A stretch of 64,000 bases of DNA from an uncultured Gammaproteobacteria bacterium. Lineage in GTDB: Bacteria; Patescibacteriota; Microgenomatia; Woykebacterales; RBG-16-39-9b. Every line of letters starts with the position of its first letter. The first letter of the stretch is position 1. The position numbers were made by a program, and so were the translations under genes. The notes under the pieces are model-generated. The model was given only the letters and a program-made list of their open reading frames with translations, did no database searches and was not told the origin of the DNA. Below, piece by piece: positions 10,259 through 55,881 of the stretch. The stretch lies in assembly GCA_964360785.1 (NCBI GenBank), contig CAYHXX010000002.1:92107-156106 (forward strand), given 5' to 3'.

Positions 10259-11629
10259 ATGGACAAAAAAGATCTCTGGAAATCTGTTCTAACAGAACTA
10301 CAACTCTCTATTTCAGCGGCCAATTTCCAAACCTGGTTTAAGGGTAAGACGGAAGTTGTCGAAATGAACGAGACTTTGGTTGTAATTGGCTGCTCAACTA
10401 CTTATGTTAAAGACTGGCTCGAACAGCGTTATCTCGGTCAGCTCAAAGCGATCCTAGATCGCCTAACAGAGGAAAACAACTCCCTTACATTTGTAGTCTC
10501 CTCTTCCTTGAAGGAAGAGCCCGCCAAGGTTGTAAAAAAGGAAGCGGAGGCAACTGATACTTTATTTGGGAGTGCAGATTTTGATCGGCTTTCAGAAAAA
10601 ATTTCCAGGGCCAATCTGAACCCAGGCTATAAATTCGAGAATTTCATTGTTGGGGGAAGTAACCAACTCGCCTTTGCCGTCTGCCAGGCAATTGCAGAAA
10701 ACCCAAGTAATTCTTACAATCCTTTTTTTGTTTATGGAGGAGTCGGGCTTGGGAAAACTCATTTGATACAGGCAGTAGGCCATGAAATAATTCGACGTTC
10801 ATCGGGTTCAAAAGTCTACTACTCCTCTTCAGAGACATTTACCAATAATCTGATGGAAGCAATCCAGCAGCGTAAAACTAAAGAGCTACGCGAAAAATTT
10901 CGTAGTGTTGATGTCTTGATTATTGATGATATTCAGTTTATTGCTGGGAGAGAAAGTACCCAGGAGGAGTTTTTTCACACCTTCAATGATTTGTTTGGTA
11001 AGGGTAAGCAAATAATCTTGAGTAGCGACCGAGAGCCCTCACAAATCGCAAAGCTCGAGGATCGGTTGCGAAGCAGGTTTAGTGGCGGCATGATAGCTGA
11101 TATTCAGCCACCAGATGCGGATATGCGCCAGGCAATTCTAATATCAAAAATACGCAGGCAAAACCTAGAGATCCCCGAGGAGGTTGTTAGATACCTCGCC
11201 AACTCGATCTCAACTAATGTTCGTGATTTGGAAGGTTCGCTCTTGCGGCTTGTTACTCAGGCAAGGGTCAACAACTCAGAGCTCTCCCTGGAGCTTGCAA
11301 AAAGTTTTATTGACCAACGAAGAGGGCGCAACCTTGCTGCTAAGGTCGCTCCAAAAGAGGTTATTGACACTGTTTGTAACTACTTTAACCTGCGCCAAAC
11401 AGACCTAAGAGGCACCAGCCGCGTTGCTAAGGTAGTATTGCCGAGACAAATTACCATGTACTTGTTGCGTACGGACCTGGGTATACAATACGAAAACATT
11501 GCTCGGGAGTTGGGGGGTAGAGACCATTCAACGGTTATGCACGGTGTGGAAAAGATAGAGACAAATGTGGAAAAGTCGGACAAAATTCGCGGATTAGTTG
11601 CGGATATCAGAGCAAAACTCTACAGCTAA
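10259..11629 (+). CDS. dnaA: chromosomal replication initiator DnaA
   Basis: AAA+ Walker A GVGLGKTHL, DnaA C-terminal HTH. Confidence 0.95.
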   Translation: MDKKDLWKSVLTELQLSISAANFQTWFKGKTEVVEMNETLVVIGCSTTYVKDWLEQRYLGQLKAILDRLTEENNSLTFVVSSSLKEEPAKVVKKEAEATDTLFGSADFDRLSEKISRANLNPGYKFENFIVGGSNQLAFAVCQAIAENPSNSYNPFFVYGGVGLGKTHLIQAVGHEIIRRSSGSKVYYSSSETFTNNLMEAIQQRKTKELREKFRSVDVLIIDDIQFIAGRESTQEEFFHTFNDLFGKGKQIILSSDREPSQIAKLEDRLRSRFSGGMIADIQPPDADMRQAILISKIRRQNLEIPEEVVRYLANSISTNVRDLEGSLLRLVTQARVNNSELSLELAKSFIDQRRGRNLAAKVAPKEVIDTVCNYFNLRQTDLRGTSRVAKVVLPRQITMYLLRTDLGIQYENIARELGGRDHSTVMHGVEKIETNVEKSDKIRGLVADIRAKLYS

Positions 11630-12901: not shown

Positions 12902-14002
12902 ATGTTTTTGGAAGAACTCCGAGTTTTGAATTTTCGCAACCTAACCCAACAAAAAATTTCCTTTAGTGAGGGTATCAATGTTTTTTACGGGGACAATGCC
13001 CAGGGCAAGACAAACTTTCTTGAGGCAATCTATTTACTTTCAACCAGCAAATCCTTTCGTACCAGAGCCGATCATGAACTGATTACTTGGGGTCAAGAAA
13101 GCTCCAAGGTGGTCGGTAAGGCATCTTTCCTGGAAATCGAGCTCCTCATAACACAGAACAAAAAAAGCTTGTTGGTTAATAAGCAGGAAAAGAGGCTGAC
13201 TGATTTGATTGGTTCTTTTCTCACCGTCCTCTTTACCCCAGCGGATATAGAGATTGTCAGTGGTTCTCCCGATAAGCGGCGTCGCTTTCTAGATCAGCTT
13301 GGCTGTTCTCTTAGTCGTGATTATCTGGTAAACCTCGTCAAGATTAGCCGAGTACTTAGATCCAGAAACCAGCTTTTGTGGGAGCTTAAGCAGGGTAGAA
13401 ACGTCGATCTGTCGGTTTGGGATCTGCAGTTAGCAAAACTTGCCAGTCTTATTTGGAGGTTTAGGTTTGAATTAATGCTAGCTTTACAAGAAAGTTTGCA
13501 AAAGCTTTCAAAAAAACTCACCGGAGGGGAACTGAAAATTATTTATGTGACCCAGGCTAAAGGGGAGAGCGACAAAAAAATAGAGGAAAACTTTTTGGAG
13601 GAACTACAGCTACTGCGAAACGAGGAGATACAAAAAAGCCAAACCCAGATCGGCCCACAAAGAGATGACTTCAAGATTTTATTGGAGGTAGAGGAGGGCG
13701 CAAAAGTAGTGAGTAAGGATTTGAATACTTACGGCTCTCGAGGAGAGCAGCGCGCGGCTAGTTTAGCTTTAAAGCTTTCAGAAATCGAGATTATCGAACA
13801 TGAAAAAAATACTCGACCCACTCTACTGCTGGATGATGTTTTGGGGGAGCTTGACCAAAACCACCAAAAATTGCTTTTAGCACAGCTGAAGAAGGGCCAA
13901 TCTTTTTTGACAACAACAAGCATTGAAAGCTTTGGCCAAAACCTAATCGGAAAGTTTAAAAAGCTCAAAGTAGAGAAGGGTATAGTTACTATTGCTGATT
14001 AG
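12902..14002 (+). CDS. recF: DNA replication and repair protein RecF
   Basis: Walker A GDNAQGKTN, dnaA-dnaN-recF synteny. Confidence 0.9.
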   Translation: MFLEELRVLNFRNLTQQKISFSEGINVFYGDNAQGKTNFLEAIYLLSTSKSFRTRADHELITWGQESSKVVGKASFLEIELLITQNKKSLLVNKQEKRLTDLIGSFLTVLFTPADIEIVSGSPDKRRRFLDQLGCSLSRDYLVNLVKISRVLRSRNQLLWELKQGRNVDLSVWDLQLAKLASLIWRFRFELMLALQESLQKLSKKLTGGELKIIYVTQAKGESDKKIEENFLEELQLLRNEEIQKSQTQIGPQRDDFKILLEVEEGAKVVSKDLNTYGSRGEQRAASLALKLSEIEIIEHEKNTRPTLLLDDVLGELDQNHQKLLLAQLKKGQSFLTTTSIESFGQNLIGKFKKLKVEKGIVTIAD

Positions 14003-15848
14003 TTTCTGGGGCAGTTGGTGGCTGCGCTTGTTCCTGTTTTGAATCCTGCTCCATCTGATTGAGCTCTTGTGGGTTGGAGGTAATCAGCAGGTGTTCGTGA
14101 GGAGCCGCCTGGACTCTGATAGCAACATGGTTATTACCAGCAAAGAATAGGCCTTCGCCGACATCGGCTGACAGTAACAAGTTGCGCTCTCCTTCTGAAA
14201 GATAGAACGTCTCGACAACCTGTTCGATTGAAGCAGAGGACTGCTTTAGCAATATTTGAATTGAAGAGTTGGTTACGATTGCTTTCCCAAAATCGGTTGC
14301 GAGGAAGTCCTCAACATCCTGAGTGACCGTGGTCAAACCCAGATAATATTTACGCGCTCTTTTTGCGATTGAGTAAATGAAGGAAGCGCTGTCCGGGTGT
14401 TTCATCATATACCAAGCCTCATCCACAAGTAGAAGTCTGCGTTTTCTTTCCTTTTTTACCCTCGTCCAGATGTAGTCAAGGATGATAAACATTCCGATTG
14501 GTCGCAATTCATCCTCCAGATCGCGAATGGAGAAAACAGTAAAGGTGTTTTTAATATCAATTGTCGAGGCCTGATCAAATATTCCTGAAAGTGAGCCTTT
14601 GATAAATTTCTCGATTCTCTCAGCCATGGATTTGGCTTCGGGCTCGGCACTGTTGAGCAGAACCTCGTACAGATCTTCCAAAACCGGAGGAGTCCTTGTT
14701 TGTGTATTTGGGTCTGGAGTGATCCCTTTGAGTTTGTAGGTTGTGATTAAGGCACGGTCCAAAATTGCATCTTCAGTTGGAGTCATGTTACCAAGAATTA
14801 TTCGGAAAAGGGAGTGCAGAGAAAGAATTTTTAGGCCCAATTCATTTTCCCCCTCAGTGTAAACCCCAGAAAGATCAAAAGGATTGATTTTCGAAGCCTG
14901 GTTTCCCGAAAATCGAATATACTCACCACCAATAGCTTCACACAAGGTTTGGTACTCGTTCTCTGGGTCGATGACTATCACCTCAGTTCCTAACATCAAG
15001 CTGCGCATCGCCTCTAACTTGGTCATGTAACTTTTACCCGCCCCGCTTTTGGCAAAGATGACACTGTTAGCATTCTCTAGACTGAAGCGATCAAAAATAA
15101 CCAAGGAACCATTGTGCTCGTTTATTCCATACAAAATTCCTTCGTTGGCGGTAAGTTCCGAGGAAGTAAATGGAAAAGTAGTTGCTAGGGAAGTCGTATC
15201 CATATTTCTGGTTACCAAGAGCTTATCAGTGAAAGTCGGAAGTGTGGTCTGAAAGCCCATCTCTTGCTGTAAGGTTGCGTGTTTTGACACGATCAGCAGG
15301 GAACCTAGTGTGGATTCGATCTGTTTAGTTATTGAGTTGAGTTCCTCCAGAGTTTCTGCTGGGATTGTGATGTAGAAAGAAAACTGGAAAAAGCGTTCAA
15401 TGCCAGCAACAAGTTGTTCTTGTAGTGATTGGGCATCTTCGAGCGCGATTCGGACAGCCGGGTCAATGACGTGACCTTTTTCAAAATCTCCTTGAACCGT
15501 AGCCTGCATCTCAGCGATCTTACGACGCAAGTCATCCAGAATACCCTTAGCCTCGACAGGATAGTAATAGAAGGCGATATCAAGTGTATGATCAAAATTG
15601 ATAATAGGTGCCAGCCAGTTTGCTCCAACAAAACGTGGGTAGCCGGAAATAAACAACGTTCGATAAAAGGTTTCTCCAACACGAACATGATCAAAATCCA
15701 CTTGCAGTGCTGGGGGTGCGATAATATCTTTGACGTCGACCATACCCCGGCCTAAGGTATTGCGTACCTTTTCTCTGGTTTGAGCTAGTTCAAGCTCTTC
15801 TTGAGTTGCTTTCTTATCTTTTTTCTTACCACCAAATAAAGACATCAT
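13989..15848 (-). CDS. VirB4/TrbE-like conjugation/T4SS ATPase
   Basis: Walker A FAKSGAGKSY, Walker B LLLVDEAWYMM, VirB4-like N-terminal region; last gene of a four-gene coupled operon. Confidence 0.7.
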   Translation of the reverse strand: MMSLFGGKKKDKKATQEELELAQTREKVRNTLGRGMVDVKDIIAPPALQVDFDHVRVGETFYRTLFISGYPRFVGANWLAPIINFDHTLDIAFYYYPVEAKGILDDLRRKIAEMQATVQGDFEKGHVIDPAVRIALEDAQSLQEQLVAGIERFFQFSFYITIPAETLEELNSITKQIESTLGSLLIVSKHATLQQEMGFQTTLPTFTDKLLVTRNMDTTSLATTFPFTSSELTANEGILYGINEHNGSLVIFDRFSLENANSVIFAKSGAGKSYMTKLEAMRSLMLGTEVIVIDPENEYQTLCEAIGGEYIRFSGNQASKINPFDLSGVYTEGENELGLKILSLHSLFRIILGNMTPTEDAILDRALITTYKLKGITPDPNTQTRTPPVLEDLYEVLLNSAEPEAKSMAERIEKFIKGSLSGIFDQASTIDIKNTFTVFSIRDLEDELRPIGMFIILDYIWTRVKKERKRRLLLVDEAWYMMKHPDSASFIYSIAKRARKYYLGLTTVTQDVEDFLATDFGKAIVTNSSIQILLKQSSASIEQVVETFYLSEGERNLLLSADVGEGLFFAGNNHVAIRVQAAPHEHLLITSNPQELNQMEQDSKQEQAQPPTAPETNQQ

Positions 15849-16573
15849 TTACTTTCTCCTTCCGTTGGGACCTGCACTGGAGGCTCACCCATGGTTGGCT
15901 GTAGTGCTGGTTCAACTATTGGTGTCGTGTACTCAGTAGTATTTAGGGCTGCCTTTTGCTCGAGCGAGACGTCAGGGTTGTATAGATCATAGAAAAACTC
16001 CACCAGTTCTTCAGTGGTGAGTTCGTGCGCTTTGACCCCAATACGGGAAACTTGTTTAACCAGATGGTCAACCTTTGGACCGAGATTTACCTTTGCTTTT
16101 TCCAAAATGTGCCACCTGTCTTCAACCGGAGCTTTTTTTGCAAAAAGACTTGGGATCGTTAGAGCCTGAGACAGTGTTGTGCCGGCGTAGGGAATGACAA
16201 TATAAAAACGTTTATCAAGAACTTGGTTTCGTGAAACTAGCTCCTTTATGAAATTTGAGTAGAGATTTATTTGGTAAGCGAGCTGTTGGTTAGTAGCTTT
16301 TTGCTCAGCCTCAGAGAGAAGTTTCAGATAATTTGAAATATCCATTCTCTTGGAGCGGACTATGACTTGAATTGGATAGGTCAAAGAGTTGAGTAAGGCT
16401 GCATAAGCAAAAATCATCGAGTCTTGCTCGCGCTCAGAAAGAAGGTCAAAATTTACGGCGGTTGTTTGTAGGATGGAAACAGCGTTACCGTTGCGAAGAA
16501 TGACGATATTATCGCGAATATCGTCGATGTCTAAGTGTTGCTGGGTAGATGCAATTGGTTTTTTGGCAGCCAT
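15845..16573 (-). CDS. hypothetical T4SS-associated protein (242 aa)
   Basis: Stop overlaps the ATPase start (ATGA coupling); no TM helix; no family recognised. Confidence 0.5.
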   Translation of the reverse strand: MAAKKPIASTQQHLDIDDIRDNIVILRNGNAVSILQTTAVNFDLLSEREQDSMIFAYAALLNSLTYPIQVIVRSKRMDISNYLKLLSEAEQKATNQQLAYQINLYSNFIKELVSRNQVLDKRFYIVIPYAGTTLSQALTIPSLFAKKAPVEDRWHILEKAKVNLGPKVDHLVKQVSRIGVKAHELTTEELVEFFYDLYNPDVSLEQKAALNTTEYTTPIVEPALQPTMGEPPVQVPTEGESK

Positions 16574-16601
16574 AATTTTTAAGTTACTCCTTGGTCTTCT
16601 C

Positions 16602-19466
16602 CTACCTTGCCTTTATTTCAATGGGTGGCAGTATTCCTCCATTAACTTCGACTTCTATAATATCAAAATCAAAGCCCGGTTTTTCAAGTTCCAGTGTATA
16701 AACACCGTTTGGTAGCGGTGTCGACACTGCAAACTGTCCAATCTTATTAGTTTTAAAGGCCCTGACCGGATCACCTTCTTGATCTTTAACTATAATGACT
16801 ACTGTGTCCATGAGCAAACCTTGGATGTTTTTAACTATTCCGTTGATGACATTAGGTACTGTCGGGGTGTTTGGTAGCATTTTTCCGTATGCGGGTACAG
16901 CCTTGACTACTGGACGAGAACGTTCCTCAAGTTTGCGAGCCTCCCTTTGGCGTTCGAGACCCTTTATTTCGGCGATTATTTTTGCCTTTTCCTCTGGGGA
17001 GCGCTCTTTCTTTTCCTGTACTTTCAGAGCCTCGACCTGAGTGTTTGTTGGGTTGCTACCTGTTTTAGGAGGTTGCCCGGACTTTACGGCTGCAGGTTTT
17101 TCGCCCATTTTCGCGAGCATAGTTTGCAATTCAGAATTTATTCTTCGCCGCTGTGCTACTGCTTTAATTTCGTCAAATTGTCTAGAAACTTCACTTTGAC
17201 GCCCAAGTGCCTCCAGGTTTTGCAGCATCTGAGATCTTTCCTCTTTTGAAAGAGCTTCCAAGGATTTGTTACCCGCTGTTGTGAGGCTATTTTTAAGTTT
17301 AATCAAATCCTCTTTCAAGGACTCTTGTGTTATAGCCTCGGTTTTTTCTGGGGCTTGGTTTTTACTTTGTGCTAGTTCCTTTTGCTTTTCCTCTTCAGTC
17401 CTCTTTTTTTGTTGCAGCTCTTCTTTGGCAGTGCGAATTGCCTCTTTCGCAGCCTCCTCTTTCGCAGCAGTCTCAAGTATTTGCTTTTCAATGTCGCCTT
17501 GAAGGGACATTGTCGCTCCAGTTGCAATTGTTGGTAGGTTCCCGGTTGGGTTACCGGTTGTTTGTACTGGAATTGCTTGAATATTTATTTGTGCTGTTGG
17601 GTTACCAGGTAGTACTCTGGGTTGCCCAACAGAAATATTAGCTGGAACTTCAATTGTTGCAGCGCTGTCGTTGGCGGGTGCGGAGGTTGCTACTGCTTTA
17701 ATATTGGCCTGACCAGGAGCACTACTTTGTTGCAATGAATCCACGGAAACGTTTGTTGGGATGGATGTCGTACCAGACTGTGCTGCTGTTAGTTGGTTTA
17801 CTGTTTGTGGAGCCTGCTTCTTCAAAGCTTCCGAGACTATTTTTTCGATTTCCTGAGTTGAAGTCGACGACTGTCCCATTTGTTTTTCAACAGCAGCATT
17901 AATTAGGGTTTGTACTCGGTCGTTATCCAGGTTTTGTACTTCTTTTACCGTCTCTCTTTCAATGACCTTTGGTTGCAGTTCCTGCGTCTTCTCCAAGATT
18001 GCTTTCTCAACTGCTGCTTGTACTTGCTCCGGCTGAGCCTCTTCCTTGCGTACAATTTCCTTAATTTCCGGAGGTTGGGTGACTGTGGATTGAATTACTG
18101 CCGCGTTTGAACCTACCGTGTCTGCGGGCAAATTGATCTTAATTCCTGCTGGTTCCTGAGCCTTAATTAAGTTTATCGGACTGGAAATTTGACGAGTCGG
18201 AAGAGCATCTATATTGCCAGTATCAACCCCAACTATCTTTATTGTCTCAGGTTGCTTTTCTATAACAGGTCTTGGTTTTTCCAGACCCTCAAGTTTAAAG
18301 CTGATTTCCCTAGGTTTACGATGCATTCGCTCATGTTTCTCACGATGGCCTTCGATATTTTCAACTTTGTCTGTGAGCCAGTCAGTTTTTTGCTTGAGAT
18401 ATTTCAAAGCAATAGAGTGGCTGTTGACCAAGTTGGTCAAAGTATATTTCCAATCTGAGACTGCTTGCATCATCTTTTCGTCATAGGCTAGCTTTTGTTC
18501 CAGGGCGGAAAGCTCTTCAAAACTACGCTCCTTTTCCAAATTGGAAATAGTTGTGTCGATATGAAGCACTTCCTTGGTCAGAGTTTCAATTTCCCTCTCC
18601 AGATTTTCAATATGGGACTGAAGATTAGCAGTCGGCTCTGAAATTTCCTTCGGTTTGCTAGTTCCCACAACTAGCCTCTTTGGGAGCTCAGGTTTATGAG
18701 GCTGGACAAGAGTTTGCTGAGGCTGGTTTATTTGCGAGACTCCAGCAGGTCTTGTAGCCACAGTCTGTGGGGTTTGAATGTTTACTGGCGGTTGAGAAAT
18801 TGGTTTTTGCAATGTTGGTGCAGCCGTGTTTTGGTTAGAGACCCTTGGAGTTTTAAATACCATTGTCTTAGCCTCATTTGAGGCTTTAGTATTAGGCTGA
18901 GTTTGCTGGTTAGCGATTTCAAGCGAGATTTTTTGCCTAAGTTGCTCAAAAAGGACCTTATTGATGCCTTCCAATTGCTTTTTCAAGTCTTCACTCCTGG
19001 CTTTGGCCTGCTCGGTTGTTAAGGTTGGGGCTGGTGCTGTCTTTGGTTGGGAGGGTTCCGGTGCTCTTTGGATGGAAGATTGAGCTGGTGGTGCCACTAG
19101 AGTCTGTTTTTGATAAACAGTTCCTTGATTCACCTTGGCTTTGATCTGTTCATGTAGGTTCGAAGCGAGCTCTATCAGGCCCGCACCTTTGATAGAAACC
19201 TGGCCATCCTTGTTAACAACGGTTGGGGATACGGATCTCTGGCTGGTATTCTTCACCGCGCGTACATAGGTGTCGCCGCTGGCAACGCTGATTGTTGCTA
19301 CAGGGGCAAAACCAACCTCGCCGGCAAGTTTTGGCTGGCTTGTTTTAGGAGTACTGACGCTGCGAGGGTTTTCTCCAGGCAGAAAACGATGCTGCACAAC
19401 TGGTTCAGGAGTAGGTGTATTTATCTTATTTCTTAATGTCGCGTTCACGGCTACTTGGGAATTCAT
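16602..19466 (-). CDS. large Pro/Gln-rich coiled-coil protein with C-terminal carboxypeptidase-regulatory-like beta domain (954 aa)
   Basis: Low-complexity and coiled-coil regions; C-terminal ...QFAVSTPLPNGVYTLELEKPGFDFD... beta-sandwich; translationally coupled to the prgI-like gene. Confidence 0.6.
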   Translation of the reverse strand: MNSQVAVNATLRNKINTPTPEPVVQHRFLPGENPRSVSTPKTSQPKLAGEVGFAPVATISVASGDTYVRAVKNTSQRSVSPTVVNKDGQVSIKGAGLIELASNLHEQIKAKVNQGTVYQKQTLVAPPAQSSIQRAPEPSQPKTAPAPTLTTEQAKARSEDLKKQLEGINKVLFEQLRQKISLEIANQQTQPNTKASNEAKTMVFKTPRVSNQNTAAPTLQKPISQPPVNIQTPQTVATRPAGVSQINQPQQTLVQPHKPELPKRLVVGTSKPKEISEPTANLQSHIENLEREIETLTKEVLHIDTTISNLEKERSFEELSALEQKLAYDEKMMQAVSDWKYTLTNLVNSHSIALKYLKQKTDWLTDKVENIEGHREKHERMHRKPREISFKLEGLEKPRPVIEKQPETIKIVGVDTGNIDALPTRQISSPINLIKAQEPAGIKINLPADTVGSNAAVIQSTVTQPPEIKEIVRKEEAQPEQVQAAVEKAILEKTQELQPKVIERETVKEVQNLDNDRVQTLINAAVEKQMGQSSTSTQEIEKIVSEALKKQAPQTVNQLTAAQSGTTSIPTNVSVDSLQQSSAPGQANIKAVATSAPANDSAATIEVPANISVGQPRVLPGNPTAQINIQAIPVQTTGNPTGNLPTIATGATMSLQGDIEKQILETAAKEEAAKEAIRTAKEELQQKKRTEEEKQKELAQSKNQAPEKTEAITQESLKEDLIKLKNSLTTAGNKSLEALSKEERSQMLQNLEALGRQSEVSRQFDEIKAVAQRRRINSELQTMLAKMGEKPAAVKSGQPPKTGSNPTNTQVEALKVQEKKERSPEEKAKIIAEIKGLERQREARKLEERSRPVVKAVPAYGKMLPNTPTVPNVINGIVKNIQGLLMDTVVIIVKDQEGDPVRAFKTNKIGQFAVSTPLPNGVYTLELEKPGFDFDIIEVEVNGGILPPIEIKAR

Positions 19467-20086
19467 TGCGAACCCTCCTCGGAGGAGCGCTCTTTAGTTT
19501 TTTCGATAACCTCGCTCATACGTTGAAAGCCAATTCCACTATCTGGAGTCAGAGTGGCCACTTTTGGAGAAAGGCTTGGGCTGGTAAATACTTGCCTATC
19601 CTTTTCGAAAGGTGACAAGTTTAGTTGCTCTAACCGACGTTCTTCGTTGATATCAACTAAGCTTTTTGATTTAATCTTGCGATGGCTTTGGAGATAGAGG
19701 TTTAGTTTTGTTGGGTCGGAGACTATCCTTGGTTCGACAGCTTCCGATTGTCTGTGCAGGTACATCGAAAATTGTGGCTCCAAAAAACCGATTTCTTTAG
19801 GTTCGCGGTGCCAAACCCGCACGTTCGGGGAGTAAACTGTATGAAAAAAAGCCGCGATCCAGCGTTCAAAAGGCATATTATTGAGACTAACAAAGGCCAA
19901 AGCCACTGCAAACGCAGCCACGGGGATTCCAACCAAGAGAACGACGAAAAAAGGAAGTTTGGCCGAGTAGATAATGAAGATAAAGATGGCCGCCGCAGCT
20001 AGATAGCCAAATTGGCGGATAGTTAGGAAACCAATGAGCTTGAATTCAAACCCAGTGATATTTTGTGGAACAGGGTGGCTTTGCAT
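19463..20086 (-). CDS. PrgI/TcpE-like (VirB3 analogue) two-TM conjugation membrane protein
   Basis: FEFKLIGFLTIRQFGYL motif and two TM helices typical of the PrgI/TcpE family. Confidence 0.5.
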   Translation of the reverse strand: MQSHPVPQNITGFEFKLIGFLTIRQFGYLAAAAIFIFIIYSAKLPFFVVLLVGIPVAAFAVALAFVSLNNMPFERWIAAFFHTVYSPNVRVWHREPKEIGFLEPQFSMYLHRQSEAVEPRIVSDPTKLNLYLQSHRKIKSKSLVDINEERRLEQLNLSPFEKDRQVFTSPSLSPKVATLTPDSGIGFQRMSEVIEKTKERSSEEGSQ

Positions 20087-20302
20087 ATGTTACTTGGAAA
20101 ACAGACAAAACACGCACGAAGTGCGCTTTTAGCTAAAAATTAGGTCAATTTTCCTTTTGTCCCTCTTTGACTCTCTTTTGTGGCTATTATTATGCCTAAA
20201 TAAACTTGCAATTACAACCCGTAACAAACCGTATCAGTTAGCCGTAATCAGTAATCAGTAATCAGGTAGTAGTAACCTGTAGAGGAGTGTTAAAATAATG
20301 TT

Positions 20303-20467
20303 GTGATAAAGTATACAAAACATGCTTTGACTAGGTTGGAGGAACGTAACATTGCAAAGGAGAATGTAGAAGAATTACTAGACAAACCTGATTATATATT
20401 GAAATCAAAGCTAAAGACAAATTATACGAAGACGTGTAATCGACTACAATTATATGTGGACATATAA
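20303..20467 (+). CDS. DUF4258-like small protein (putative toxin partner of the DUF2283 protein), GTG start
   Basis: 54 aa, ...HALTRLEERNIAKENVEELL..., ends 13 nt before the DUF2283 gene. Confidence 0.4.
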   Translation: MIKYTKHALTRLEERNIAKENVEELLDKPDYILKSKLKTNYTKTCNRLQLYVDI

Positions 20468-20479
20468 CTGACTACAATT

Positions 20480-20692
20480 ATGAAACTAGAATACGATAAA
20501 AAAGCAGATTCGGCCTATATATACTTAGGTAAAAGTAAGTTTACGGTTGAAGAAACAAAAGAACTTTCAGATGAAGTTTTTGTTGATTATGACAAGGATG
20601 GCAAACCTTTAGGTATAGAAATTATTGGTTTTAAGGATAAAGTCCCCTCGAAAACGCTAAAGCGCTTACAATCACAAACTATCACCAGTTAA
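20480..20692 (+). CDS. DUF2283 family protein
   Basis: MKLEYDKKADSAYIYLGK... signature. Confidence 0.6.
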   Translation: MKLEYDKKADSAYIYLGKSKFTVEETKELSDEVFVDYDKDGKPLGIEIIGFKDKVPSKTLKRLQSQTITS

Positions 20693-20859
20693 GAATTACC
20701 CAACTAAAATATTATAGGATTGACATTAGCTTCATTTTGTGCTAAACTGCAGCAAATTAATATACAGGAGTATTTGTGAACGTATTTAAACTAATCAAGA
20801 AGAAGACCTCAGAAGGACCGCCAAGGTAATTGGCGGTGCCCAAGCGTAAGCTTGAGCAA

Positions 20860-20903
20860 AGGGCTTCTGAGGACCAAGGTTGGTCAACAGAAGCCCTTTT
20901 CTT
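20860..20903 (+). terminator. rho-independent terminator (10-bp stem AGGGCTTCTG/CAGAAGCCCT plus T-run)
   Basis: Perfect 10-bp inverted repeat followed by TTTTCTT. Confidence 0.6.
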
Positions 20904-21175
20904 ATGCCCAAAAGTTGCACCTTAAAAACCAAATAGCAAGCAAAGAAAGAGAGAAACTCCTTGATCTCTCATCAGGGGACACTCCGCAGAAATTAGAAAT
21001 TGCTGAAGGGTGCCCCTTGATGAGAATGCATTTTGCACTCATCGAAGGGTTAACCACGTAACCATCTTCTTTTAAGCGCGCCTTAGGGTGCAGCTTGGGA
21101 GGGTGTTTGGGTAACCAATTCGGTAGTGCATAGGCACTTAGCTTTTGATGGCTAGGACCATCAAGGAGGATCAGA

Positions 21176-24007
21176 ATGGCGACGGACGACGAGAACCCGG
21201 GCGATGAGCCTGAGTATGATGAGGAAGTGCAAGTCAGGCTTTCCAGCGGTTCTGGAGTAATAGCGGAGGCAATCGCCCTAACTGCCAGAAAAGGGGAAAT
21301 TCCCCAAACCGGGCCTCTCACCGACGCAGAGTACAACAACCTCATGGTTCGTCAGTACGAGACGAGCCTTGATGGTCTGCTGCGAACTCTCGTAACCAAT
21401 ACCCGGGTCAACATGCAAGCAATAGACCAGATCGCCCGCACCCTCGGTGCGCTGCGACGCTGGGTCCCGGTTTGGTTTTGGGAGGAAAAAGAAGACAATG
21501 GGCAGTGGAAGACCAACAACCCCTGGAAGCGGGACGAAGCCGGCAAGCCAGCAATCCTATGCAAGGAAGTTAATGGTAAGTCGGTTCCCGACCTCAAGAA
21601 CGGTAAGATCCAGTACGTTCCAAACGATAGCCCAGAGGTAGTCTGGGTACCAGACGTCTCATGGAAATGGGTCTCAGGCCTGGGAATTGAGGCCCTTCGC
21701 AACCTCGGTGATCTGGACCGTAAGCTCGAGTCAGGTGAGATTCGCCACATTCGTAAGTGGTTTCTTTCACCGACGCACAACGAACGCAATGTCATCGGCC
21801 CGCGGGAAGCTTTTGCCAAAGTGCCTAAGCGGGTAGTGCGCCGCTACATTCGCTCACTCCAAAAGCTGCAGAAAATGTTGGAGCAGCGTGGTACGGACTA
21901 CCTCATCGATGACTTCTACACCGGCCGTCGCCCTGAAAAATGGGCTCCAAGCGACCAGTGGCCAGACCTCGAGACTCCTAGGATCAGCCTGAGGAAGCTC
22001 AATATCTACGAGCTCAGCAAGTACGCTGAGTATCGGATCGGTCTGTGTTTCTTTTCCGCCGAACGGCGGTGGAAGTATCTCATGCGTGAGAGGAAGATTG
22101 CCATTGCCTCTCACAAAGCCGTAGACAAGAACGGCAAACGCAAACCCATCACCGACAGGCAGCTCGAAAACGCCATTGAGAAGGCCTACGCGTGGTGGAC
22201 ACCATACGTTCAGCACGAGTTCGTACGACGTTATCTCCCGGACAAGATCAGGGTCAAGAAGCAACCAGATAGTGGGAAGATCCTCGACCTCAGTTTCCGG
22301 TTCGACGGCGTCGACCATCTGCAGACAATCACACCGGCTGAGAGAGCGGACGCTTTCTTCGACGTGGTGAACCAGATATCGTGGATCATTCGTTACCCGA
22401 CAGCTTCGGGAACCAACGAAGTCGATTGGAGCGACTTCCTCGTTTACTTTCCGATCAACGAGGAGATTCGTGACCTGGCTCGTATGGTTGGGCACTTCCA
22501 ACAGTCACGTTCTCGGCAGTGGCGCGCCGACAAGTTCAACTTCTCAGAGAACGAGGCCAACACTGCTGTGGGGGCAGACCACGGTGGTTGTGCCAGTGCC
22601 CGCAGGTGGGAAGACGACATTACCTTTGAAGTCGTTTACTACTTCTGCGAGGCAATGCGACCCGGACTGAAGCCTGAAGACGAGGCTAAAATCCGCTCGC
22701 AGATCGACGACATCACTCTCGAGATCATTCTGTCACAGCATCCGGAGGCATTTCATTCCCGGATGAGCATCAAGGACTGGCGCCAACTTCGGCGTGATCT
22801 AATCGGACCAGTCCATTCCCGTAAGCCCAGAGGCCGCATGCCGGCGAACACGGCTTTCTACGGAGAATTCGACCTTCGGGTCGTTGACATCACCAAAGGA
22901 GCCGGGGAAAATCGCTCCGCGATCTCAGTAGCTCGCGAGGGTGGGGGTTTGAAGTGGAATAGGGACCTCATCCTCAAGGATCTACCGAAGCTAAGACGCT
23001 ACACAGGGGGAGAAATCGCCTTGCTGGCGTCGGAGACTTACTTCTGGCTGTGCCCCTGGGACATCACCAAAAACAACGGGGGTCTCAAGTCAGAGGGGAT
23101 GATCAATGCGTTTGTCAACCGTCTGGGTATCTTCACCCGGGAAGACGGCGAACCGCTGATCGAGATCGTTGACCTTATGGAGTACTGGCAGGAGTACTAC
23201 CGCGACGGGAATATCAGGGCCAAGATGGAGGTCGCCACGATGAAAACCGTGGGTGCCGATACCCCGGTCCACAAACCGGTGAAGATCGACTGGTTCAACC
23301 AGACCGAGATTCGCCGGCAAATCATCTGGAAACAACCTGCCAAAAACATCATCCCGCACCTGCTGGACTACTTTGAAGACCAGAAGCGGGAGCGGGTGGT
23401 GCACATTCGGCCGAATCTCCGCAAGGAGTGGCTCAACGGTCTACCACACACTCTGTGGGAGGATCCTGAGTTCAAGACAGCGGTTGAGCAGCTGAACTAT
23501 CGCTCGGATGAACGCCTGATGGACTGGGCGGGATTCAAGAACCACGGCATTGGGGAATTCTCTGCCCGCGCGGTTCCCCAGAGTTTTGCCGATAGGTTCC
23601 TCGAGGATGGTTTCGCTACCGATAATGGTCTGCCGGACGAAATCGCTATCGAGTGGGCGACTAATCTCGCGATCCTAGGCTGGCTGAGCAGTCAGTTTGA
23701 CAAGGCCATGTATATGGCTCGCGAAATCGTCTACAACCACGAGAAAAACGTGAACGGGTTTGAGCAGGTAGAGATAGTCGGCAAGGCTATGGGTAGTGGT
23801 TTGCACCCGAGGATCGCTTACGCGACAGAGGAGGCAATCACCCATAACCGTATGATCCAATGGCAGCACTTCATAGAGGTTGATGTGCCAGAGGCATTAA
23901 CGGTTCTCGACACCATCTTCAATGAAGTAGAGGCCCACCTGCTAGGAAGGGAGTCATTAGAGGTTTCAAAGCGAGGCGGTGTTTTCGTAGCAATGCGCGC
24001 CGCCTAG
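21176..24007 (+). CDS. large hypothetical protein (943 aa), higher GC than flanking DNA, no recognisable domains
   Basis: Strong SD AAGGAGG 6 nt before the ATG; uninterrupted 2.8-kb ORF; no known catalytic motif identified by eye. Confidence 0.75.
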   Translation: MATDDENPGDEPEYDEEVQVRLSSGSGVIAEAIALTARKGEIPQTGPLTDAEYNNLMVRQYETSLDGLLRTLVTNTRVNMQAIDQIARTLGALRRWVPVWFWEEKEDNGQWKTNNPWKRDEAGKPAILCKEVNGKSVPDLKNGKIQYVPNDSPEVVWVPDVSWKWVSGLGIEALRNLGDLDRKLESGEIRHIRKWFLSPTHNERNVIGPREAFAKVPKRVVRRYIRSLQKLQKMLEQRGTDYLIDDFYTGRRPEKWAPSDQWPDLETPRISLRKLNIYELSKYAEYRIGLCFFSAERRWKYLMRERKIAIASHKAVDKNGKRKPITDRQLENAIEKAYAWWTPYVQHEFVRRYLPDKIRVKKQPDSGKILDLSFRFDGVDHLQTITPAERADAFFDVVNQISWIIRYPTASGTNEVDWSDFLVYFPINEEIRDLARMVGHFQQSRSRQWRADKFNFSENEANTAVGADHGGCASARRWEDDITFEVVYYFCEAMRPGLKPEDEAKIRSQIDDITLEIILSQHPEAFHSRMSIKDWRQLRRDLIGPVHSRKPRGRMPANTAFYGEFDLRVVDITKGAGENRSAISVAREGGGLKWNRDLILKDLPKLRRYTGGEIALLASETYFWLCPWDITKNNGGLKSEGMINAFVNRLGIFTREDGEPLIEIVDLMEYWQEYYRDGNIRAKMEVATMKTVGADTPVHKPVKIDWFNQTEIRRQIIWKQPAKNIIPHLLDYFEDQKRERVVHIRPNLRKEWLNGLPHTLWEDPEFKTAVEQLNYRSDERLMDWAGFKNHGIGEFSARAVPQSFADRFLEDGFATDNGLPDEIAIEWATNLAILGWLSSQFDKAMYMAREIVYNHEKNVNGFEQVEIVGKAMGSGLHPRIAYATEEAITHNRMIQWQHFIEVDVPEALTVLDTIFNEVEAHLLGRESLEVSKRGGVFVAMRAA

Positions 24008-24075
24008 CACCCAGACCGCCCGGTAGTTTCCGAAAGGAGCACCGGGCGGTTTTTCATATCTAAAGTACTTCATTC

Positions 24076-26052
24076 CTAAGGTTTACCTCGTCCCGGAGGT
24101 TTAACTGCTTTTTCCAAATCATCCACAGAGAGATGTGGGTTTTGTTTGCCCAGCTCACGCATTTGTTTAATCTGGTCAGTTGAGAAGTGTGTGAACTTAA
24201 CTCCCCGTGAACCAGCCCAATTTTGTAATTCCTCTACTTCTTCGCGACCTACCTCTCTCCGTACACTTGGATCCTCGGCACCAGGACTTGTCTGCACAAT
24301 ACCCCGAGCTATTTTTGCCCGTAAACCTGGATTTTCAGTCGCGCCCTCATGAATTTCTCCAACCTTTATACCAACTGGTTTACCATCCGGCCCCATGTGC
24401 GTAAACTGTTGAACATTTGTCGGTGCAGGTCTGGGTCCCCAACCGGCATTTCTCAAGCCAGTCAGACCCTGACCAACCGTTCCGCGCAAAGCGGTGACAC
24501 CACTCAGAGACCTACCTAAATTACCAGCAGCTTTTAGTCCGGCCATCGGTACAGCTACCGGAGCAGCGAGGACGCCGGCTCCGAGACCACCTTTGACATC
24601 AAAGCTATCAAGCTTGAACATTTTTTCCAGGAATACCGGGACTTTGGTGGCAAAGAAGATCATTCCCATGCCAATAAAGTAAGCAATATTTAGGATATCT
24701 CCTTGGAGGGGGTCTGGTGCTGAGATAGCCCCTTGCAGTTCTCCCCCGACTGGCCGCGTTTGGGCAATCAAACCCATTGCAAGATAAATCAAGAAAAGAA
24801 TTATTGGGAAGGCAATTGTATTGACAAACATGCGTTTGAACCAATTGATAGTAACTGACTCAAAACCAGGAATCGCGCCAAGCAAAAACATCAACGGTGC
24901 AAAGACAGTGTAAAGTACCATGTAAGCGAAGTTTTTGATCAAGATCCAGAAAAGATAAATACCGACAATCAAGAGCATCAGTCGTATGAAAATCTCAAAA
25001 ATAAGTGCAATGAAAAGTATAGAAAATGTCCCTCCTGGGAAGATTCCACCAATGGGAGAGCACAAGATAGATTGCCAATTGAAGGCTGTTCCTAGTGAGA
25101 AAGCTGTAAATAGTGGGAACCATACAAATTCTCCTCCAAAAGCTGAGGACCAGGTTGAAAGCGTTCCACCAAAGAAGTTACGAACCAGGGAGACAGAGAT
25201 ATTTATAAAATCGACAAATAAGCCGGAAATAGCAAAACTGAAGACAATCAGAACCAAAGCGATAGCAAAACGAGGCAGCGAGTTGGTTGCGGTTACCACG
25301 GTTTTTGGGTCAAGCCGACGGCGCAGCATCACCATAAAGCCAATAATGATCAGAGCAATAACCATGAAGACAATTGCGAGTTGTTCCATCTTGCTCCACA
25401 CTTTGCGGATACCTTCCCCAAGATGCTGGGTACCCTGACCCTGAGCGTTGGCATCTCTGATACCCAGGACGTTGCTCTTGAACTCATCCACTAGGTAAGT
25501 GCTGGAGTAACTATTAGAGGCAGAAGTGAAAAACCCATTAAGTCCAAAATCTAGAGCCACAAAAGCACTGAAGTCTGGCTGACCAGCGTTTGTCGTTGAT
25601 AGCGGTGCGGTGTCTGAGGCATCACTGATGAGGTTGTTAAAAACACCGTTACAGAAACTAGCCCAGAGGTCCATCCGAATACCCAGAACCTCGCCAACAA
25701 GCTTTAGGGCCTGGATGACAAATTTTTTGAGAAATTCGCCGAGATGGCTGGTAATATATTTAAAAATTTTCTCAGGTAGGTTGGTTATCGCTCCAACGAC
25801 TCCGCTAAGATCAATCCCACCAAATGGGTTGGGGATATCAACTTGTTGAACCCGACCAGTTTCTGTCCGACCACCAGGAACGGGAACTGTTTGTTGGTCT
25901 GTGGGAACAGTTTGCGTGTACTGGATGTTTGTGGGTAGTGTTTGGGCTTTTGTAGCTGGGGCCAAAATTGTGAAGGAAGAACAGAGAAGTACTAGCGAGA
26001 GGACTAGATTTCTAACGAAGTAGTATTTTTTGCGGCTTTGCAAAAACTTCAT
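24076..26052 (-). CDS. VirB6/TrbL-like polytopic membrane protein (658 aa)
   Basis: Signal peptide, large N-terminal exodomain, at least six TM helices, Gly-rich C-terminal tail. Confidence 0.5.
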   Translation of the reverse strand: MKFLQSRKKYYFVRNLVLSLVLLCSSFTILAPATKAQTLPTNIQYTQTVPTDQQTVPVPGGRTETGRVQQVDIPNPFGGIDLSGVVGAITNLPEKIFKYITSHLGEFLKKFVIQALKLVGEVLGIRMDLWASFCNGVFNNLISDASDTAPLSTTNAGQPDFSAFVALDFGLNGFFTSASNSYSSTYLVDEFKSNVLGIRDANAQGQGTQHLGEGIRKVWSKMEQLAIVFMVIALIIIGFMVMLRRRLDPKTVVTATNSLPRFAIALVLIVFSFAISGLFVDFINISVSLVRNFFGGTLSTWSSAFGGEFVWFPLFTAFSLGTAFNWQSILCSPIGGIFPGGTFSILFIALIFEIFIRLMLLIVGIYLFWILIKNFAYMVLYTVFAPLMFLLGAIPGFESVTINWFKRMFVNTIAFPIILFLIYLAMGLIAQTRPVGGELQGAISAPDPLQGDILNIAYFIGMGMIFFATKVPVFLEKMFKLDSFDVKGGLGAGVLAAPVAVPMAGLKAAGNLGRSLSGVTALRGTVGQGLTGLRNAGWGPRPAPTNVQQFTHMGPDGKPVGIKVGEIHEGATENPGLRAKIARGIVQTSPGAEDPSVRREVGREEVEELQNWAGSRGVKFTHFSTDQIKQMRELGKQNPHLSVDDLEKAVKPPGRGKP

Positions 26053-26235
26053 GGCAGGGTATAGGTATATTATACGCGGACGTATGCAGAAGTATACTGA
26101 CTACATAATACGTTGACGTATATTGATTACATTATACGAAGACGTGTAATGAATACATTATAGTTAGCCTGTATTTCAAAAAGCAAGGCCACGCTTGTCT
26201 TTGAAGACTTAAAAAGTTTAGAATTGAGCTAAACT

Positions 26236-42661: not shown

Positions 42662-42737
42662 GTCCCAGTAGCTCAGTGGATAGAGCGTTAGCCTCCGGAG
42701 CTAAAGGTCGAAGGTTCGAATCCTTTCTGGGACGCCA
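42662..42737 (+). tRNA. tRNA-Arg(CCG)
   Basis: Cloverleaf, anticodon loop CTCCGGA. Confidence 0.85.
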
Positions 42738-43223: not shown

Positions 43224-43805
43224 TTACAGGACCAGAGGGTTCGCGCTGCTACTAGCTGTCGACGAGGTGCCGAGCGATCCTACGACGGTCGCAAGGCGGT
43301 GAGCTATTCCGGCGACGGAGGAGGGATTCGCTGCCACTCTTCCTCTCAGCCGTCGGGCTTTCTTCACGTCGTCGATACCGCCGTCAAACGTTGTCGCGCC
43401 GGACGTGCGCTGCCGCCACATCGGGTTGCCGTGCTGCGCCTCGGATAACAGGGACGCGAACGTTCGTCTGAGGTAGTCGAGAGCCGAGCTTGTCAACAGG
43501 ATCGCGCCGGTCGCCAGCAGCAAAGCCATGATCGCTAAAGCTGCCGTTGGGTGACCGGTCGCCGTCGCCGTGATCATCGACGCTGTCTTCGCCGCGTCGC
43601 TCGTGACGAACGCCGCTGCTCGAGGGACGTCAGTGGTCGGTGTCAGCACGACCTGGGCGCGCTGAGTCATCTGGCTCACGATCGTCATCCCGTCGGAGAG
43701 CGACGGTGGGGAGATCGAGCCATCGTGTGCCGTGCGGTAGCCGAAGCCCAGTACCAGGGCCGCGACCGCTGCTAGCACCGCGAATCGGAAGGTTAACTCC
43801 CGCAT
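43224..43805 (-). CDS. hypothetical Ala-rich membrane protein (193 aa) in a high-GC islet
   Basis: Around 62% GC against a ~40% background; N-terminal and central hydrophobic helices. Confidence 0.5.
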   Translation of the reverse strand: MRELTFRFAVLAAVAALVLGFGYRTAHDGSISPPSLSDGMTIVSQMTQRAQVVLTPTTDVPRAAAFVTSDAAKTASMITATATGHPTAALAIMALLLATGAILLTSSALDYLRRTFASLLSEAQHGNPMWRQRTSGATTFDGGIDDVKKARRLRGRVAANPSSVAGIAHRLATVVGSLGTSSTASSSANPLVL

Positions 43806-44099: not shown

Positions 44100-44191
<92 letters not shown>

Positions 44192-50243: not shown

Positions 50244-50250
50244 TTACTTA

Positions 50251-55726: not shown

Positions 55727-55881
55727 TTATTTAATTATACAAAATTTCTAAGATAAAAAGCTCCTGACTTCGTTTACAAACGGTGCCAATTTGTTTTCCT
55801 TCCCTCAAGTTGCTTTTCCAAAATTTTAGTACTAAAATTCCGACAACCAAGCAAGCATGGGGAGCGGTTACGGAGGGATCC

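Follow-up and report, generated by a model that had tools for sequence, protein, structure and literature searches.

A positionally fixed, hypervariable gene of unusual composition in the dnaA-proximal type IV secretion locus of a Patescibacteria clade

What does a large gene of foreign-looking composition do inside a type IV secretion system (T4SS) locus, and has it only lately arrived there? The question was raised by a sequence-only reading of a stretch of 64,000 nucleotides (hereafter the window), which singled out one open reading frame as a recent horizontal acquisition. This frame, here called gene X, lies at 21176..24007 on the forward strand and is a real gene that encodes 943 amino acids from an ATG start codon. 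The near-consensus Shine-Dalgarno (SD) sequence ascribed to it is present as AAGGAGG at 21163-21169, 6 nt before the ATG. The high GC content that had been noticed was likewise borne out. Gene X has a GC content of 0.550 (GC1/GC2/GC3 of 0.587/0.393/0.671), and per-gene GC3 and codon usage set it apart from the rest of the window, where 37 of the 41 other ORFs examined have a GC3 of 0.27-0.46; only the background had been placed too low, at about 40% GC instead of a window mean of 44%. The codon shift is global, with G-ending and C-ending codons both raised. Translational selection was rejected as its cause, given that both kinds of codon rise and that the gene for ribosomal protein L25 in the window has an ordinary GC3 of 0.41, which argues against an expression-linked codon bias. 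Strand or origin proximity was also rejected, dnaA, dnaN and recF on the same strand having ordinary GC3. Antisense ORFs are present inside X; as TTA, CTA and TCA are seldom used in the gene, we take these ORFs to arise incidentally from its GC3-rich coding. Directly after the stop codon a terminator-like hairpin (ACCGCCCGG...CCGGGCGGU) followed by U5 can be read from the sequence (24015..24054, forward strand); the automatic scan missed it because its loop is longer than 8 nt.

The surroundings of X agree with the T4SS neighbourhood described in the earlier reading. To the left, a conserved block on the reverse strand (13989..20086; assigned by Pfam and by precomputed Pfam annotations of the orthologues) encodes VirB4 (13989-15848; PF19044 at 1e-29 together with PF12846, TraG P-loop/AAA_10), a TraC/TrsD-like protein (15845-16573), a 954-aa protein with a CarboxypepD_reg-like end (16602-19466) and PrgI/VirB3 (19463-20086; PF12666). 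To the right, convergent to X on the reverse strand, lies the gene for a 658-aa polytopic membrane protein (24076..26052), which we call VirB6-like because the hydropathy scan showed a signal peptide and about six transmembrane (TM) segments; its Pfam match to TrbC is weak. The cluster also holds an M23 cell-wall hydrolase (PF01551) and arrays of T4SS_pilin (PF18895), and dnaA is located at 10259. VirB4, PrgI/VirB3, a VirB6-like protein (by TM segments only), a hydrolase, pilins and the proximity of dnaA are therefore all found in the cluster, and no coupling protein or relaxase was detected among the window ORFs scanned. The locus resembles the MPF-FATA-like T4SS of CPR bacteria (Quinonero-Coronel et al. 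2025, PMC12102498; Wang et al. 2023, PMC10633639) both in its components (VirB4, TrsD/TraC-like, PrgI/VirB3, VirB6-like, M23 and PF18895 pilin arrays) and in its place beside dnaA-dnaN-recF with no relaxase or coupling protein nearby. Patescibacteria T4SS lack a relaxase and are believed to export cargo other than DNA (PMC12102498, PMC10633639). Gene X is not among the catalogued components of these systems (PMC12102498, PMC10633639); because none of Pfam, NCBIfam and TIGRFAM provides a profile for it, it would be left without annotation.

A homologue of X is found at the corresponding position in each of 10 independent assemblies from related Patescibacteria, a clade of the Microgenomates group in which one relative is labelled Ca. 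Woykebacteria. The loci are L001 (= L005 = L006), L002, L003, L004, L007, L008/L009, L010, L013 and L014/L015, and X is present in all those examined, a count limited to loci that were themselves retrieved through X. Gene order is conserved as dnaA-dnaN-recF / virB4-traC-like-big-prgI / leader / X / VirB6-like / M23 / pilin array, the VirB6-like gene standing to the right of X in all syntenic loci. The fixed position goes together with a very fast divergence of the protein. Between the window and L013, VirB4 is 92%, the TraC-like protein 88%, PrgI 76% and RecF 72% identical and the leader is visibly near-identical, whereas X reaches about 19% identity (BLASTP E 0.32); between L008 and L010, PrgI shares 85% and X 21%. 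Across the orthologues identities are 72-92% for VirB4 and 58-88% for the TraC-like protein, and X falls to about 20%, a divergence similar to what VirB6-like and M23, as membrane and surface parts, display. Gene X is a positionally fixed, hypervariable member of a chromosomal, dnaA-proximal T4SS locus of the monoderm-conjugation type (MPF-FATA-like).

The same comparison overturned the proposed recent horizontal acquisition. In every syntenic locus the GC3 of X (0.49-0.72) lies above that of its neighbours (0.26-0.47), and this excess of +0.1 to +0.3 is kept across orthologues down to about 20% identity. Because both the slot and the GC3 anomaly are common to 10 assemblies at such identities, X was not imported recently: high GC3 is an old, maintained trait of the family and not the mark of an un-ameliorated arrival. 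A misassembly, which the earlier reading had wished to see excluded, is excluded by the repeated synteny. It is thus hardly credible that X is an assembly chimera or a foreign gene recently taken from a higher-GC donor. Such an origin would fit the atypical GC content and codon usage and the presence of distant family members in mobile elements of about 59% GC (58-59%). One of these, P0039, carries the central motif of the X family and sits in L016 (59% GC), where a Replic_Relax gene and a TraG/TrwB-like coupling ATPase immediately precede it and an SNF2 helicase follows; another, P0023, belongs to an integrase-HTH-X-cupin-SIR2 island. Yet slot and anomaly recur in 10 assemblies made independently from different samples, promoter and leader have been conserved along with the host lineage, and no close high-GC donor was found among 15 billion proteins, where the family amounts to 39 clusters only; all full-length clusters with examined context, bar two, sit in the CPR locus. 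Like classical genomic islands, X differs sharply from its genome in GC and codon usage. Unlike them, it is not absent from related syntenic loci, its anomaly is common to positional orthologues and is maintained instead of decaying, and neither mobility genes nor target-site repeats occur at X, no integrase or direct repeats being found on its flanks.

A repeat does exist around X, and the earlier reading had taken it as an identical 19-nt near-palindrome that brackets the whole block. The repeat is real but is an exact 20-mer, ATTATACGAAGACGTGTAAT, at 20421 and 26131 (chance expectation for the pair, 0), and it is part of two tandem arrays of 26-28-nt units with 5 copies in total: a left array of 2 copies including ATTATACGAAGACGTGTAAT (20420..20475, forward strand) and a right array of 3-4 copies (26066..26166, forward strand) in the divergent intergenic region between the VirB6-like and M23 genes. 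Enclosed by the arrays is not only X but also DUF2283, the leader and the VirB6-like gene. None of the 16 related loci carries the arrays, and they are hence specific to the window genome, which rules out the 20-nt repeat as a conserved operator and removes it as the boundary of a mobile block. X is indeed flanked by a DUF4258/DUF2283 pair and the VirB6-like gene, as had been described, but the pair does not belong to the conserved locus. This toxin-antitoxin-like pair (20303..20692, forward strand; Pfam), consisting of a truncated DUF4258 (20303-20467) and DUF2283 (20480-20692), is inserted in the prgI-X gap and missing from the other loci. In L004 the gap holds a different, RelE-like pair on the opposite strand.

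Transcription of X is predicted to start from a conserved sigma-70-type promoter (20720..20748, forward strand; TTGACA, 17 nt, TGcTAAACT with extended -10), which gave a 10/12 match with TG in the promoter scan and lies about 430 nt upstream of the ATG; the block TTGACATT...TGTGnTAnA aligns in L007, L008, L010, L013 and L004. The leader that follows (about 430 nt; 431 nt folded) is strongly structured (z -7.86) and, as the earlier reading had proposed, can form alternative hairpins, with pairings that involve the SD. Hairpin A (CCGCC...GGCGG; 20818..20836, forward strand) is predicted by both the 7-locus consensus fold and the MFE fold of the single sequence. Hairpin B (20850..20907, forward strand; inverted repeat I1) is a long G+C-rich stem followed by UUUUCUU. 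RNAalifold of both hairpins over 7 loci gave 24 consensus pairs, of which 13 are compensatory, all 13 in hairpin B. The latter is predicted to be intrinsic-terminator-like and could serve as an attenuator or form the end of a small RNA of about 150 nt.

Further along the leader (all forward strand), an upstream anti-SD-like element (ACUCCUUGAUC; 20957..20967), conserved in alignment A4, pairs in the MFE fold with the SD region (CCAUCAAGGAGG; 21158..21169), which contains AAGGAGG. Element 1 (CCCCUUGAUGAG; 21013..21024) has two predicted partners, the SD region and element 2 (CUCAUCGAAGGG; 21038..21049), an SD-like decoy with which it forms the local hairpin C. In the window the duplex energies of its two pairings are about equal (-15.4 and -15.3 kcal/mol); they are similar in 8 loci whose upstream sequence is complete and weaker in a ninth, L001, which is also the exception to the AAGGAGG kept in all other aligned loci (AAGGAGA in L001). 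Pairing in the anti-SD:SD helix amounts to 91%, compared with 31-56% for slid controls, and covariation in the helix comes from 7 sequences with one compensatory pair. The element 2 pairing is 69% paired column-wise, a weak support because the register differs between clades. As predicted from these folds, the leader helices can occlude the SD. Rfam 15 gave no match at the gathering threshold in the leader or coding sequence of the window or in L001, L004, L007 and L008; the sub-threshold matches were at chance level, among them ctRNA_p42d at hairpin B, whose 22 bits compare with a gathering score of 50. A promoter that is conserved, a leader that is long and structured and a terminator-like hairpin are features that X shares with genes under SD-sequestering riboregulators or attenuators, and its predicted helices, which exclude each other and of which one hides the SD, recall translational riboswitches, RNA thermometers and attenuators. 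The leader differs from riboswitches in being much longer than is typical, and from described riboregulators in its lack of an Rfam match at the gathering threshold.

The coding region is itself unusually structured. In 10 of 10 loci the X mRNA folds more stably than shuffles that preserve the protein, the codon boxes and the dinucleotides (z -2.3 to -11.5), while neighbour genes under the same shuffles gave z of -2.05 to +0.39. Other shuffle schemes concur, and the sense strand is stabler than the antisense strand. The excess is diffuse, no discrete conserved RNA element having been found inside the coding sequence. High GC3 is accompanied by significantly more mRNA structure than protein sequence and dinucleotide content demand, and we infer that GC3, mRNA structure and regulation are linked.

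The product is a soluble, mainly alpha-helical protein of about 105 kDa from an undescribed family, with an acidic and disordered N-terminus (net charge of the first 40 residues -5 to -11 in 20 of 25 members). In keeping with a cytoplasmic protein, signal peptides are absent from the family members, and TM segments are lacking in 24 of 25, with one weak segment in P0013. The label "orphan" holds in so far as no known family takes it in, but relatives exist, 4 in 90% clusters and 39 in an exhaustive profile search, so that X is not a strict orphan. A word-indexed search with the family alignment brought no extra sequences, 72,556 plasmids searched by tblastn with P0001 and P0039 yielded no match, and neither did a scan of viral contigs. 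There was no match of X to Pfam, NCBIfam, PADLOC (0 defence families at E <= 1), PHROGs or PDB sequences, none of Pfam and NCBIfam profiles to any of the 25 family members, and none of the family profile to PDB sequences. AlphaFold with 5 close homologues alone reached a pLDDT of 38, and the 25-sequence alignment was used instead, giving a usable model (pLDDT 74) with a confident core of 246 residues above pLDDT 90. A fold search with this model found no match. The sequence-only reading had recognised no catalytic or structural motif, and the family comparison agrees, with no domain or fold match and no conserved Walker A or HExxH. Walker A occurs in just 3 of 25 members at differing positions and H.H sporadically at non-homologous ones. 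Neither X nor its 25 relatives match a relaxase in Pfam or NCBIfam or show a domain with HUH/His-triad and catalytic Tyr. A VirD4/TcpA-like coupling protein is likewise not indicated, there being no conserved Walker A, no TM segment to serve as an N-terminal membrane anchor and no profile match. Invariant residues across the family show clear conservation at the protein level. The extreme C-terminus is conserved in two types, ...LGR..LE.VK.G...AA-COOH and ...GRFFEINQ-COOH, which resemble no characterised signal; among the 30 family sequences listed, 9 end in -AA (8 if the 25 full-length ones are taken by themselves) and about 6 have an -FFEINQ-like end.

What could such a protein do? The roles first suggested for it were those of effector, conjugation accessory or defence factor, and the former two are still the most plausible. 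Our favoured but tentative reading is that X may have come down from conjugative elements and serve the T4SS as a substrate or accessory protein whose expression is conditional. It would descend from an accessory gene in the DNA-processing module of such elements. In a relaxase-less T4SS it would be cargo for translocation, acting as an effector or 'establishment' protein in a host or neighbour cell and being recognised via its conserved extreme C-terminus, and its rapid divergence would reflect an arms race with the target cell. Its expression would be conditional, with transcription read-through and SD release gated by a signal, and the structured, GC-rich coding region could stabilise an mRNA that may sit untranslated. 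In common with conjugative T4SS substrates and 'establishment' proteins, X is large, soluble and fast-evolving, it has a C-terminal tail that could be a recognition signal, and a distant relative is encoded in a 59% GC element immediately behind the genes for Replic_Relax and a T4CP. It differs from them in having no homology to a described substrate, ArdC or a primase, methylase or helicase domain, and the CPR locus differs from conjugative elements in having no DNA-processing genes. Against a substrate role stand the lack, among the scanned window ORFs, of a coupling protein or relaxase to explain recruitment and the lack of a conserved enzymatic or toxin motif or a fold match.

The missing coupling protein leads to a somewhat doubtful alternative, in which X would be a cytoplasmic structural or adaptor subunit and not a secreted substrate, for example a receptor or platform that replaces the coupling protein and docks on VirB4, the TraC-like or the VirB6-like protein. 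Its fixed position in 10 assemblies, the lack of a T4CP near virB4 in the window, the large, all-helical, soluble nature of the protein and the relative placed immediately after the T4CP in L016 would all be in accordance with this. Tight docking would however predict less divergence than the fall to about 20% identity next to well-conserved VirB4 and TraC-like proteins; X has no nucleotide-binding motif, and it forms a separate, divergent transcription unit with an elaborate leader, unlike the core operon. The strict position in the T4SS locus in 10 assemblies argues against a defence or anti-defence protein that merely resides beside the T4SS, acting in the producer against phages or incoming DNA or protecting transferred DNA as do the polyvalent and anti-restriction proteins of conjugative elements. 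We regard this as improbable: defence genes usually change place, just two non-T4SS contexts were found among those examined, PADLOC gave no match, and no nuclease, NTPase or sensor motif is conserved, even though relatives adjoin SIR2_2 (L012) and an SNF2 helicase in a conjugative module (L016), hypervariability is typical for conflict genes, and the prgI-X gap gathers toxin-antitoxin pairs.

The GC3 and folding excess, kept in 10 of 10 orthologues despite saturated protein divergence, would also be expected if the nucleic acid and not the protein alone were selected, the X transcript or single-stranded DNA being functional in its own right as a stored or exported RNA or as cargo expressed in a higher-GC host cell. 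The transcript or single strand might then be stored or delivered by the T4SS, with GC3 and pairing serving function, stability or expression in the target cell, by analogy with T-DNA genes that are tuned for their recipient, here from prokaryote to prokaryote. The sense-strand bias of folding and a machine whose ancestors move nucleic acids are compatible with this, but we consider it very improbable in view of the clear protein-level conservation (invariant residues, 246 residues above pLDDT 90), the absence of a relaxase or oriT, of a discrete conserved RNA element in the coding sequence and of an Rfam match, and a GC3 (0.49-0.72) well below typical actinobacterial values. A milder version of this long shot would have a new riboregulator hold a structure-stabilised, silent effector mRNA for contact-triggered translation.

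The substrate or accessory reading has a bearing on the biology of CPR bacteria. The only CPR bacteria that are amenable to genetics cannot do without a T4SS in their epibiotic life, and we know of no cargo of the relaxase-less CPR T4SS. In Southlakia, a cultured Saccharibacterium, the essential cluster SEML1_0004-0019 is ordered differently and the Tn-seq tables show no evident equivalent of X, from which we conclude that X is clade-specific and not a general part of the CPR T4SS. For one large CPR clade X is a concrete candidate substrate or substrate-handling factor, a status strengthened by its relatives beside relaxase and coupling-protein genes, and its leader is a candidate new regulatory RNA. 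X is also a clean natural case for studying gene-specific selection, or biased conversion, on nucleotide composition in reduced genomes, and it warns against equating atypical GC with recent transfer. Taken together, X may encode the protein that is secreted by the T4SS of this CPR clade.

Gene X (21176-24007, + strand) is confirmed as an open reading frame of 943 aa with a strong Shine-Dalgarno (SD) sequence, AAGGAGG (21163-21169), spaced 6 nt from the ATG. The sequence-only reading had described it as rich in GC and devoid of a recognisable motif, and both points hold, with a GC content of 0.550 and zero matches to Pfam, NCBIfam, PADLOC or PDB sequences; the background, given there as ~40% GC, is 44% over the window. 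The excess is concentrated at third positions (GC1/2/3 of 0.587/0.393/0.671), GC3 lying between 0.27 and 0.46 in 37 of the 41 other window ORFs examined. Codon usage is shifted throughout (AAG, GAG, CAG, CTG/CTC, CGC/CGG and NNC up; TTA, AGA, ATA and NNT down) and the amino acids are likewise “GC-like” (Arg 8.4% versus 3.8%; Trp 3.3% versus 0.8%). Neither expression level nor strand accounts for the anomaly, since GC3 is ordinary both in ribosomal protein L25 (4937-5638; 0.41) and in dnaA, dnaN and recF on the same strand as X.

Other parts of the window are also GC-rich. Its first ~4 kb (1-4000; 52-56% GC) hold only short ORFs (e.g. 421-1101, 2640-3146 and 3456-3860, all - strand), with no significant Pfam match (RcnB only, at E 0.0096, below its threshold) and no rRNA or other Rfam match, and may be another GC-rich island. 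The highest GC (0.64; GC3 0.76) is found in a 193-aa ORF (43224-43805, - strand) between tRNA-Arg (42662-42737) and tRNA-Ser (44100-44189); Ala/Thr/Ser-rich, with hydrophobic segments and without Pfam match, it may be a small insertion beside tRNA genes or no gene at all. GC3 is raised as well in an OmpR-type response regulator (55783-56676, +; 0.57) and a 325-aa protein without Pfam match (59561-60538, +; 0.60), whose mRNA-folding z values under global synonymous shuffles are mildly negative (-2.6 and -1.95, respectively).

X belongs to a real, undescribed family of soluble proteins. Only four relatives were found among 5.8 billion 90%-clusters, and 39 when 1.84 billion representatives were searched exhaustively with a profile. 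Transmembrane segments are absent from 24 of 25 members (P0013 has one weak segment) and no Walker A, HExxH or CxxC motif is conserved in the family. The AlphaFold model (25-sequence alignment; pLDDT 73.8, pTM 0.69) is largely alpha-helical with small beta elements; disorder is predicted for the acidic N-terminus (1-44) and for loops at 114-187 and 355-383. In the most conserved stretch, DW...YFPINEEIRDLARMVGHFQQ...D.GG, the E/E/R/D/R/H residues are predicted to line one face of a long helix. Despite the overall divergence the extreme C-termini fall into two conserved types, ...LGR..LE.VK.G...AA-COOH and ...GRFFEINQ-COOH.

The family is fixed in a relaxase-less, dnaA-proximal, monoderm-conjugation-type T4SS locus, a type described for Patescibacteria (PMC12102498) and essential in Southlakia (PMC10633639). 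X is not listed among the Patescibacteria T4SS components as catalogued, and the Southlakia cluster differs in its arrangement, with no evident X. The gene order is (rnpA)-dnaA-dnaN-recF, then virB4(-), a TraC/TrsD-like gene(-), a large protein(-) and prgI(-), followed by a gap of 0.7-1.1 kb, X(+), a VirB6-like gene(-), an M23 peptidase(+) and, further on, PF18895 pilin arrays. It is kept wherever the DNA suffices (L001, the same locus as L005 and L006; L004, L007, L008/L009, L010, L013 and L014/L015), L002 and L003 being partial loci. The VirB6-like membrane protein (signal peptide and ~6 TM segments) and the upstream DUF4258/DUF2283 pair, both recognised in the sequence-only reading, were confirmed. 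The depositor label of the L007 VirB4 is “Candidatus Woykebacteria bacterium” (Microgenomates group). The labels of L005 (DATBWR010000016.1, “Candidatus Nanoarchaeia archaeon”) and L004 (CAYIWY010000009.1, “uncultured Gammaproteobacteria bacterium”) probably reflect mislabelling or misbinning, because these contigs hold a bacterial dnaA-dnaN-recF and a CPR-type T4SS locus. Toxin-antitoxin pairs insert into the prgI-X gap: in the window (20087-21175) it carries a truncated DUF4258 and DUF2283 on the + strand and in L004 (8734-9886) a RelE/YafQ-like toxin and an antitoxin-like ORF on the - strand, and no such pair was found in the gap of the other loci. A Fic/DOC family protein (Fic_N and Fic; 50215-51339, +), encoded ~26 kb downstream of the X gene, may be a toxin or an enzyme of effector type.

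The composition of X had been taken as a sign of recent horizontal acquisition. This is not supported, as GC3 is raised in every syntenic locus (0.67 in the window, 0.58 in L001, 0.54 in L002, 0.56 in L003, 0.49 in L004, 0.72 in L007, 0.63 in both L008 and L010, 0.55 in L013 and 0.68 in L014, against 0.26-0.47 in neighbouring genes) despite orthologue identities of only 19-64%. At such identities synonymous sites are long saturated, and the anomaly is therefore maintained and not residual. An assembly chimera is ruled out by the recurrence of the synteny in independent assemblies. Two loci carry an extra lipoprotein-like gene, without Pfam match, in the interval separating the VirB6-like and M23 genes: L008 (14935-15588, -; 217 aa) and L010 (7186-7914, -; 242 aa). 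GC3 is raised in these as well (0.54 and 0.56), so the variable half of the locus holds GC3-rich genes other than X.

Transcript folding was assessed in 120-nt windows, by setting their mean MFE against that of shuffles preserving protein, codon box and exact dinucleotide counts. The z values are -2.3 to -11.5 for the 10 X orthologues (window -4.3, L013 -9.4, L004 -11.5) and -2.05 to +0.39 for neighbouring genes. The excess, likewise maintained, is also seen with global and 40-codon-local synonymous shuffles, and the sense strand is stabler than the antisense in most cases. It is diffuse (76-84% of windows below zero), with a central cluster at ~22976-23500 in the window. Since folding exceeds the shuffles, GC3 may plausibly be maintained by selection for base pairing in the transcript; an alternative would be a recombination hot spot with GC-biased gene conversion.

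X is hypervariable. The closest genome pair, the window and L013, shares 61% identity in DnaN, 72% in RecF, 92% in VirB4, 88% in the TraC-like protein and 76% in PrgI, with leaders near-identical by eye in the alignment, and only ~19% in X (BLASTP E 0.32); L008 and L010 share 85% in PrgI and 21% in X. The X proteins nearest to that of the window come from L003 and L004, though their housekeeping genes are more distant, which points either to extremely fast divergence or to exchange of old alleles between lineages. Variation like that of X is seen in the VirB6-like and M23 proteins but not in the cytoplasmic ATPase module. In the window (13989-16573, -) and its orthologues, VirB4 (72-92% identity) and the TraC/TrsD-like protein beside it (58-88%) are conserved far above DnaN (35-61%) and RecF (38-72%), a degree of conservation, compared with replication proteins, that is uncommon in a secretion ATPase.

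The ATG is preceded, at a distance of ~430 nt, by a conserved promoter (20720-20748), and the structured leader between them is conserved; in the window it spans 431 nt (folding z = -7.86) and matches no Rfam family. The consensus fold of its first part (7 loci) comprises 24 pairs in hairpins A and B. Compensatory changes affect 13 of them, all in hairpin B (20850-20907), which precedes a U-run and would serve as an attenuator or form the end of a small RNA of ~150 nt. The alternative hairpins proposed earlier were borne out and extended: element 1 (CCCCUUGAUGAG, 21013-21024) has two possible partners, the SD-like element 2 next to it (21038-21049) and the genuine SD region (21158-21169), with pairing energies about equal in 8 loci and weaker in L001. 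Pairing in the anti-SD:SD helix reaches 91%, against 31-56% when the helix is slid as a control, and one pair is compensatory; a second anti-SD-like element (20957-20967) covers the SD in the MFE fold. Support for a switch involving the SD is moderate, coming from 7 sequences, and the local hairpin is out of register between clades.

The near-palindrome of 19 nt said to bracket the block is a real repeat, an exact 20-mer (ATTATACGAAGACGTGTAAT) at 20421 and 26131 (chance expectation 0), and represents a unit in each of two tandem arrays with a repeat length of 26-28 nt. The left array (20420-20475, 2 copies) lies between the truncated DUF4258 and DUF2283, the right one (26066-26166, 3-4 copies) in the region holding the divergent promoters of the VirB6-like and M23 genes; their core, ATWATAYGNNGACRT, occurs in 5 copies at these two places only in 64 kb. 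They enclose DUF2283, the leader, X and the VirB6-like gene, not X alone, and none of the 16 related loci has the motif. The repeat is genome-specific and not the boundary of a mobile X module; the arrays could be operators, iterons or a small mobile repeat.

Two relatives lie outside the CPR locus, with the same GC as their surroundings. P0039 (L016, 59% GC) has the central motif in common with X and is encoded directly 3' of a Replic_Relax gene and a TraG/TrwB-like coupling ATPase, with an SNF2 helicase after it. This stretch (160-11118, 59% GC), which also holds a 175-aa and a 474-aa ORF, looks like a DNA-processing module of a conjugative or mobilisable kind and is the only locus found to pair the family with a relaxase-like gene. 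P0023 (L012, 58.5% GC) lies in an island of integrase, HTH, X, cupin and SIR2_2. These contexts tie the family to conjugative and integrative elements, in line with the proposal that the CPR T4SS arose from monoderm conjugative elements (PMC12102498). X could also be a cytoplasmic adaptor, or a conflict protein merely co-located with the T4SS; we consider both less likely than a secreted substrate. X would descend from an accessory gene of a conjugative element, its expression would be conditional, and the protein itself would be a substrate of the T4SS.
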